From IMG/VR virus record IMGVR_UViG_2548876958_000008: a stretch of 5,235 bases of DNA. One strand, written 5' to 3'. The stretch's first letter is position 1, and the number at the start of each line of letters is the position of its first letter. Below, piece by piece: positions 3,759 to 4,047 of the stretch. Under the pieces are notes generated by a model that was not told where the DNA came from, made no database searches, and worked only from the letters and a program-made list of their open reading frames with translations. The translations under genes were made by a program, and so were the position numbers. Origin of the DNA: a virus (Duplodnaviria > Heunggongvirae > Uroviricota > Caudoviricetes).

Positions 3759-3849
3759 CCAGACCCGGGGGGGATCATCCGGAGAAAAAAAACGATCGCC
3801 CTGGACACCGCGCCCCCTCTCACGCAGAGAAAAAATTCCCGTTTCAGGG

Positions 3850-3867
3850 CAGTTAACATGTTAACTG
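3850..3867. repeat. Perfect 18-bp palindrome CAGTTAACATGTTAACTG, with imperfect G/C-rich flanking arms over 3847-3874
   Basis: Read directly; the reverse complement of 3850-3867 is identical to the forward sequence. Flanks gggcag / ctggctgccc extend the symmetry imperfectly. Followed by a T-rich stretch (cattttt gcgg ttttt, 3878-3893). Confidence 0.8.
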
Positions 3868-3923
3868 GCTGCCCGGGCATTTTTGCGGTTTTTATCTTTA
3901 TTATTCAGTTTGTTGTGCGGAAA

Positions 3924-3977
3924 AAATGTTAACAGGCTTTTTCAGCAAATGTTAACCAGGCAGCAGTTAACATTTGC
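3924..3977. repeat. Array of AAATGTTAAC motifs: direct copies at 3924-3933 and 3947-3956, and a perfect 12-bp inverted repeat GCAAATGTTAAC (3945-3956) / GTTAACATTTGC (3966-3977) with a 9-bp spacer
   Basis: Read directly. Together with the 18-bp palindrome this gives five GTTAAC cores within about 125 bp, whereas I found only three elsewhere in the window (about 525, 1146 and 2670). The two direct copies are 23 bp apart, roughly two helical turns. Confidence 0.75.
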
Positions 3978-4047
3978 GGCATGAGACGCCGGGAAAAATG
4001 GGCTGAACCATACCCGGCTGAGTGCGTTCTGGACCCGGGAGGAGGCT

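Follow-up and report, generated by a model that had tools for sequence, protein, structure and literature searches.

In phage lambda, cosB (R3-I1-R2-R1), which is bound by the terminase small subunit (TerS) gpNu1, is composed of several short elements in mixed orientations. The elements lie between cosN and terS at the first-packaged end of the DNA, with a spacer between the proximal and the distal sites, and the specificity follows the DNA-binding domain of TerS. Satellites exploit or alter this cosB part of cos (PMC6739421). In HK97, the order is HNH-cos-terS-terL, the cohesive end is a 10-nt 3' extension, the terminase large subunit (TerL) belongs to PF03354, and TerS recognises one A-tract element (+15 to +29) located just past the nick (PMC11331095). 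The HK97 TerS, gp1, has no helix-turn-helix (HTH) and binds one 15-bp site with the DNA threaded through its ring. An N-terminal HTH fold is present in SPP1/SF6 G1P (Terminase_2) and in TerS of the Pseudomonas phage PaP3. SPP1 G1P recognises a number of repeated boxes (pacL, pacR), and both SPP1 and SF6 use headful pac packaging. The PaP3 TerS binds DNA sequence-specifically via mobile HTH domains (PMC7672466). The DNA analysed here, hereafter the window, is a 5,235-nt stretch of a virus of the Caudoviricetes (IMG/VR record IMGVR_UViG_2548876958_000008), in which a dense array of GTTAAC-centred sites was noticed at 3847-3980, upstream of the terS gene.

The array is probably the cosB-like TerS recognition part of an HK97-type cos site that works with an SF6-type HTH TerS. 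The presence of several short elements between cosN and terS at the first-packaged end, their mixed orientations and the spacer between the proximal and distal sites agree with lambda cosB, and the specificity appears to follow the DNA-binding domain of TerS as well, here by sequence association. In contrast to lambda, this domain is SF6/Terminase_2-like instead of the Nu1 winged HTH, the cohesive end is a 10-nt 3' overhang with an HNH partner instead of a 12-nt 5' end, the motif is unrelated to the R elements, and the proximal site overlaps the terS start codon in most relatives. Also unlike in lambda, no consensus of the integration host factor (IHF), WATCAANNNNTTR, was detected in 3759-4047 with up to one mismatch allowed. 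The HK97-type traits of the locus are the HNH-cos-terS-terL order with HNH beside the terminase genes, the 10-nt 3' end, the PF03354 TerL and, putatively, the TerS recognition just past the nick. Unlike in HK97, there are five repeated sites over ~125 bp, and TerS has an HTH, being Terminase_2/SF6-like and not a gp1-type protein with a single A-tract site. On inspection, no evident sequence resemblance was seen between the HK97 left end and the window cos. The earlier note had suggested an alignment with cos regions of HK97-family phages; for the HK97 cos itself such an alignment is uninformative because TerS is not gp1-like here. In comparison with SPP1/SF6, the HTH fold is shared, the similarity of the TerS sequences is limited to ~55 residues, and the window phage is a cos phage with defined ends instead of a headful one. 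The kind of feature, cosB-like repeats, is already known, and the motif is a fresh example of it; no description of a GTTAAC motif together with terminase and cos was found in the searchable literature.

The palindrome, the direct copies, the inverted repeat and their shared core, which had been described in the earlier note, were all confirmed in the window with the following coordinates.

3850-3867, unstranded: sites a and b, a perfect 18-bp palindrome (CAGTTAACATGTTAACTG) with two GTTAAC cores 8 bp apart
3868-3923, unstranded: T-tract-rich spacer between the proximal and distal sites, by direct sequence reading
3924-3933, plus strand: site c, AAATGTTAAC, a direct copy
3947-3956, plus strand: site d, a further AAATGTTAAC copy, 23 bp start to start from site c
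3966-3975, minus strand: site e, within the 12-bp inverted repeat
3945-3956 and 3966-3977, unstranded: perfect 12-bp inverted repeat of sites d and e (GCAAATGTTAAC/GTTAACATTTGC) with a 9-nt spacer

The octamer ATGTTAAC occurs five times in the window, each time within 3852-3973, whereas shuffled versions of the window contained 0.14 copies on average and none of 200 reached five. The hexamer GTTAAC was found eight times against 1.1 expected, five of the eight being located in the array. When all copies are turned to the same orientation, their consensus is approximately AAATGTTAACTG, and a 12-mer search with up to three mismatches detected no further degenerate copy in the cos region. The T-tract-rich spacer may form an intrinsic bend, of which the phased T-tracts in 3880-3911 give an only suggestive hint.

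The cohesive end was located with the aid of the Stx1 (Shiga toxin 1) phage Lys8385Vzw, near-identical to the window, for whose virion DNA PhageTerm called the 3' cos CGCCCCCCCT (PMC7946995). The phage record ends with ...GGACACCGCCCCCCCT and starts with CTCACGCAGAGAAAAAATT, corresponding to window 3819, and the left end begins with CTCACGCAGAGAAAAAATTCCCGTTTCAGGGCAGTTAACATGTTAAC... The cos elements of the window were determined to be the following.

3809-3818, plus strand: cosN, the 10-nt 3' cohesive end, CGCGCCCCCT in the window, by homology to the Lys8385Vzw virion ends
3819-3849, plus strand: conserved cos core right of the nick, CTCACGCAGAGAAAAAATTCCCGTTTCAGGG, with an A-tract (3829-3836); near-invariant across genera
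3767-3773, unstranded: conserved G-run that precedes cosN and bounds the conserved cos unit on the left

The packaged left end thus begins with window base 3819. With the virion ends at 3818/3819, the array spans +32 to +157 counted from this end, which is packaged first, and has cosN on its left and terS, starting at +230, on its right. This is the position of cosB in lambda, and the location of the virion ends beside the array, expected in the earlier note, was borne out by the cohesive end of the near-identical virion 32 bp upstream of it. A homologous cohesive end, CGCCCCCCAT, was confirmed by gel in the Acinetobacter phage fEg-Aba01 (PMC7354433). The phage encodes a related TerS and contains three GTTAAA repeats between the cohesive end and terS. 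The G-run was found ~40 bp upstream of the core in the inspected enterobacterial, Burkholderia-type and Acinetobacter loci and may be a cosQ-like element. In the deposited Lys8385Vzw record (MT225100, L230:185-793), terS starts at a CTG located 45 nt upstream of the conserved GTG/MLT, which is probably a miscalled start. Between the G-run and cosN, on the side of the right end, most enterobacterial relatives (L004-L022) contain an additional GT(A/T/C)AAC hexamer ~25 bp before GGACACC, where the window has an A-run (3783-3792) instead; the hexamer may be a termination-side TerS site that was lost in the Stx lineage. In the PPompW prophages, ISEc20 (IS110 family) adjoins the cos G-run at about window 3769 (L003:2990-3010) and takes the place of the upstream lysis genes and HNH, but this has no bearing on the array because the junction lies in the G-run near 3769, outside the GTTAAC sites.

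The ancestral layout of the region was deduced from the relatives. In the Salmonella phage FSL SP-016, the gap between HNH and terS is only 106 bp, and the terS start, ATGTTAACAGCG (M-L-T-A), aligns with window 3858, the ATG of which is a vestigial ancestral terS start. The layout was compared in 19 further loci from other genera of Enterobacterales and from an Acinetobacter. Most of the enterobacterial ones contain, in this order, the G-run, ~35 bp, GGACACCGCGCCCCCTCTCACGCACAGAAAAAATTCCC..., G(T/A)(A/T)AAC-ATGTTAAC and the ATG which starts terS. The distance from the end of the core to the ATG is 24 bp in the window and 23-25 bp in the 54 relatives whose terS starts at that ATG; the palindrome 3850-3867 is therefore situated at the canonical site of the family, 24 bp past the core. 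The terS of the window (GTG CTG ACA) is displaced by ~190 bp containing three further copies of the motif, and neither FSL SP-016 nor most of the other relatives contain the segment 3866-4047. The vestigial start opens a hydrophobic 24-codon open reading frame, MLTGCPGIFAVFIFIIQFVVRKKC (3858-3932), with its stop inside site c. The length of this frame is kept in 72 of 78 related loci, the commonest substitutions being synonymous, and it could be either a translated mini-protein or a chance reading frame.

In genome contigs, a search with a two-sequence TerS alignment as the query gave matches, whereas a single TerS protein gave none. The recurrence of the motif across the family was determined in viral contigs, in which a scan for the cos core resulted in 93 unique loci, 69 of them encoding the HTH type of TerS found in the window. 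In each of the 69, the 150 bp after the core contained two or more GTTAA/TTAAC pentamers, on average 2.65 in comparison with 0.12 in a control stretch. The arrangement of the sites differed between the lineages and included a pair overlapping the start codon, two to four upstream direct repeats 9-14 bp apart, and expanded arrays of ~135 bp, which several GC-rich lineages, with 4-6 sites, had built independently. The N-terminal leucine codon of terS was TTA, forming TTAAC (ATG-TTA-AC), in 65 of the 69 loci, whereas only 10 of the 593 other leucine codons of the same genes were TTA. In all four exceptions (CTT, CTC, CTG), the gap was 59-134 bp and separate GTTAA-type sites were present upstream; the window (CTG) and the Proteus and Pantoea loci likewise combine a non-TTA leucine codon with separate upstream sites. 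The bias at the start, together with the separate sites of the exceptions, indicates that the sequence is constrained as DNA. In the prophage of Proteus mirabilis ATCC 29906, the terS linker (L020:2660-2830) consists of ~14 tandem 12-bp units with a GTTAAY core, encoding xVNx peptide repeats, and resembles an intragenic array of recognition sites, comparable to a pac site.

The TerS of the window begins with an SF6-like HTH DNA-binding domain, which a variable linker joins to a conserved C-terminal part. Residues 2-57 matched Pfam Terminase_2 with E = 1.3e-8 (36 bits, cut-off 26.1). In the AlphaFold2 (AF2) model, calculated from the single sequence and of low confidence beyond residue 60, residues 1-56 formed a four-helix HTH with a predicted local distance difference test (pLDDT) score of 85-91. 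The top Foldseek match was the DNA-binding domain of SF6 TerS (4zc3; TM 0.84, root-mean-square deviation 1.6 Å, 30% identity); further matches were 3zqq, 6w7t and 7joq, the PaP3/NV1 TerS proteins being among the best structural matches.

The association of the motif with this domain is seen in the loci in which the domain was exchanged. In at least nine sequence types, the cos core (3819-3849) and HNH are combined with another TerS N-domain, and no GTTAA was present in the region in any of them; several carry direct repeats of the AATCAAAG type where the GTTAAC sites would be. In the three such loci compared, TerL was 58-61% identical, and in one compared locus 45 residues of the TerS C-terminus aligned with 49% identity. 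The swapped N-termini were Arg/Gly-rich (MPRGGARPGAGR...), started with MAGVKG... or contained a sigma-70-region-4-like HTH. Due to the absence of GTTAA from these loci, the motif follows the TerS N-domain and not cosN, TerL or HNH. Among the viral contigs, L235-L239, L241, L244 and L233 encode a TerS with the Arg/Gly-rich MPRGGARPGAGR... N-terminus, in which no Pfam domain was found, and with the C-terminal part common to the window TerS; AATCAAAG-type repeats follow their cos core. Such proteins may have a different mode of DNA recognition.

The same loci bear on the explanation that it is the HNH endonuclease or TerL, instead of TerS, that binds the sites in order to position the cleavage. 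Of 75 related loci, 64 encode an HNH homologue upstream of cos, and the cos cleavage of HK97 is stimulated by HNH proteins (PMC11331095). However, with the same core and HNH, and with a TerL of the above identity where compared, the loci with a different TerS N-domain lack GTTAA and have other repeats, making this explanation quite unlikely.

The segment containing cos and the array was detected in 1276 of 5426 complete E. coli genomes, in up to 7 copies per genome. One divergent match adjoins clpS with no phage terminase nearby and was identified as the end of a ~10-kb satellite resembling phage-inducible chromosomal islands (PICI).

NZ_CM185152.1, 3260900-3272000 (L275): PICI-like satellite of E. 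coli SY033 between cspD and clpS, with cos at L273:660-880

The satellite encodes an integrase, a D5-type primase, a single-stranded DNA-binding protein (SSB), PerC, a gpE-like capsid protein and a gpD-like decoration protein, both of lambda type, and a Nu1-like TerS. No description of a cspD-clpS satellite was found, and the family is apparently undescribed; its type of cos was present in 50 complete genomes over at least 80% of its length. E. coli SCU-106 has this satellite-type cos and two more matches, which may be Pankowvirus-type prophages. The satellite holds cosN and all five motifs, which have been transferred together, sites c and d being one base further apart. In comparison with the window, the recognisable similarity rises from the G-run onwards, with 20 of 37 positions identical over 3766-3802 and 43 of 47 over 3803-3849, which includes the cos core; the palindrome 3850-3867 was identical in 17 of 18 positions, and sites c, d and e in 10 of 10 each. 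The spacer 3868-3923 kept its length with 37 of 56 positions identical, and the flanks of site c had diverged. In total, 47 of 48 motif positions were identical versus 49 of 80 spacer positions (Fisher p = 5.5e-7). The similarity stops just past site e (6 of 25 identical over 3976-4000). Because the satellite keeps the core and the motifs and the similarity drops after site e, the comparison points to a functional unit from ~3767 to 3977. In the more divergent prophage EC100 (89.7% identity), the motifs were also kept over the spacers.

Within the Stx lineage, the palindrome 3850-3867 was invariant in 57 variants and site c had no variable position; none of the 15 variable positions of 3847-3980 fell in the 38 octamer positions (p = 0.005). 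The repeats could otherwise be a non-functional relic, consisting of the old terS start and of local duplications which arose with the ~190-bp insertion, since the ATGTTAAC at 3858 is homologous to the terS start of the relatives and 3866-4047 is missing from FSL SP-016 and most others. Against a relic stand the invariance of the motifs in the Stx lineage, their retention in the satellite while the spacers diverged, and the expanded arrays that independent lineages built on their own; moreover, the motif apart, the extra segment is not significantly similar to the terS 5' part. The relic origin is accordingly considered improbable. The ~190 bp were also aligned locally as a decayed duplicate of the terS 5' part, and the alignments were no better than those of shuffled sequences, the motif itself excepted.

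The earlier note had named the DUF3950 protein or another regulator as the alternative binder, in which case the sites would be operators for the expression of late or terminase genes. The DUF3950 gene is located ~500 bp upstream of the array, a palindrome with inverted repeats has a typical operator shape, and the satellite also encodes a protein annotated as YlcI/YnfO. However, a DUF3950 homologue was found in none of the 75 related loci with a canonical GTTAAC site, and the YlcI-like protein of the satellite is unrelated to DUF3950 in sequence (E = 0.84) and has no Pfam match. DUF3950 as the binder was rejected on the basis of the co-occurrence and of this dissimilar protein. The promoter scan resulted in a single promoter-like match, which consists of the motif itself on the minus strand. 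Operators of any kind are considered highly improbable here. The least probable explanation, also raised in the earlier note, that the 3847-3874 hairpin (GGGCAG...CTGCCC) and the following T-rich stretch are an intrinsic terminator or a pause signal for late transcripts entering the packaging genes, does have a possible 9-bp stem and T-runs 6-20 nt downstream in its favour but fails as the fold is ordinary (-16.4 kcal/mol, z = -1.2, equalled or bettered by 19 of 200 shuffles), the terminator scan gave no plus-strand match at the hairpin, GGGCA separates the T-run from the stem (5-nt offset), no Rfam match was obtained, and the palindrome of most relatives holds the terS start codon, where a terminator would not be tolerable.

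The cosB-type TerS sites upstream of terS proposed in the earlier note fit with the end mapping, the recurrence in the family, the loss in the domain-swap loci and the copy in the satellite. On concatemeric DNA, TerS oligomers would bind the five AAATGTTAAC(TG)-type sites, all right of the nick at +32 to +157, via their HTH domains. The proximal pair (3850-3867), at a fixed distance from the core, would position TerL and HNH on cosN (3809-3818), where these would make the 10-nt 3' end. The distal sites (3924-3975), situated in the ~190-bp expansion specific to the Stx lineage, could strengthen the binding, or they could let the DNA wrap around TerS rings or bridge them across the T-tract spacer. 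The terminase would stay on the left end and package rightwards through terS and terL. TerS as the binder, its stoichiometry, the function of the additional sites and any bending or wrapping of the DNA are all proposed from sequence comparison.

Several points weigh against this recognition by TerS. The evidence for TerS as the binder is its association with the motif. In most loci the motif is accompanied by HNH and TerL, and the exclusion of these two comes solely from the domain-swap loci, about nine sequence types. The p-values given above overstate the support because the compared loci are phylogenetically non-independent, and much of 3886-4028, not just the motifs, is near-invariant within the young Stx lineage. 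Since the satellite has a Nu1-like TerS of its own, which is unrelated to the phage TerS, the dependence of the satellite on the helper TerS is an assumption. A bending step like that of lambda lacks direct support due to the missing IHF site. By analogy with HK97, the A-tract 3829-3836 could be the primary contact of TerS, with the GTTAAC sites being accessory.

The window is, judged by its similarities, a prophage of Pankowvirus type, a group of long-tailed Stx-converting phages (YYZ-2008, 2851, BP-4795, 1717) with which it shares 93-99% identity; the identity of O157:H7 prophages to window 1-5181 was 99.9%. The genes surrounding the array are the following.

3166-3351, minus strand: DUF3950 gene (YlcI/YnfO), ribbon-helix-helix (RHH)-like
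3393-3758, plus strand: HNH endonuclease gene, a gp74-like partner of HK97-type terminases (Pfam HNH PF01844; RefSeq annotation)
4048-4611, plus strand: terS, with a GTG start, a GGAGG Shine-Dalgarno sequence and a Terminase_2-type domain
4608-5181, plus strand: 5' part of terL, an HK97-type TerL ATPase (Pfam PF03354), followed by an IS3-family element from 5182

In the RefSeq annotation, the terS start is identical to the one given here, and no feature is annotated within 3759-4047. The similarity to the YYZ-2008 terL ends at 5181, and the final 54 bp (5182-5235) match the end of an IS3-family element that is multicopy in 1389 E. coli genomes; therefore, the terL of the prophage is disrupted and its cos intact. 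Between the lysis genes and DUF3950, window 2740-3060 is AT-rich, contains a perfect match to the IHF consensus (2830-2842) and a small hydrophobic open reading frame (2878-3036; 2896-3036 in RefSeq), and has the appearance of a moron-type insert.

As a tentative idea, the GTTAAC array might be exchanged together with the TerS HTH domain, the two forming a portable cassette that sets the specificity on an otherwise conserved background of cosN, TerL and HNH. The increase from two to five sites among the Stx-type phages would then be an adaptation to terminase competition from up to 7 co-resident prophages with the same cos and from the array-copying satellite. This type of cos belongs to the long-tailed Stx1, Stx2a and Stx2c phages. 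The full signal (~3767-3977) and its likely specificity determinant help to explain which defective prophages and satellites can be packaged in trans by an induced Stx phage, the window itself, with its insertion-broken terL and intact cos, being such a case. The motif also provides a simple sequence rule for the annotation of cos sites in a widespread family. Furthermore, the locus is a tractable experimental model for the joint action of an SF6-type HTH small terminase and an HK97-type cos nuclease, a pairing that bears on how ring-shaped small terminases read multi-site DNA.
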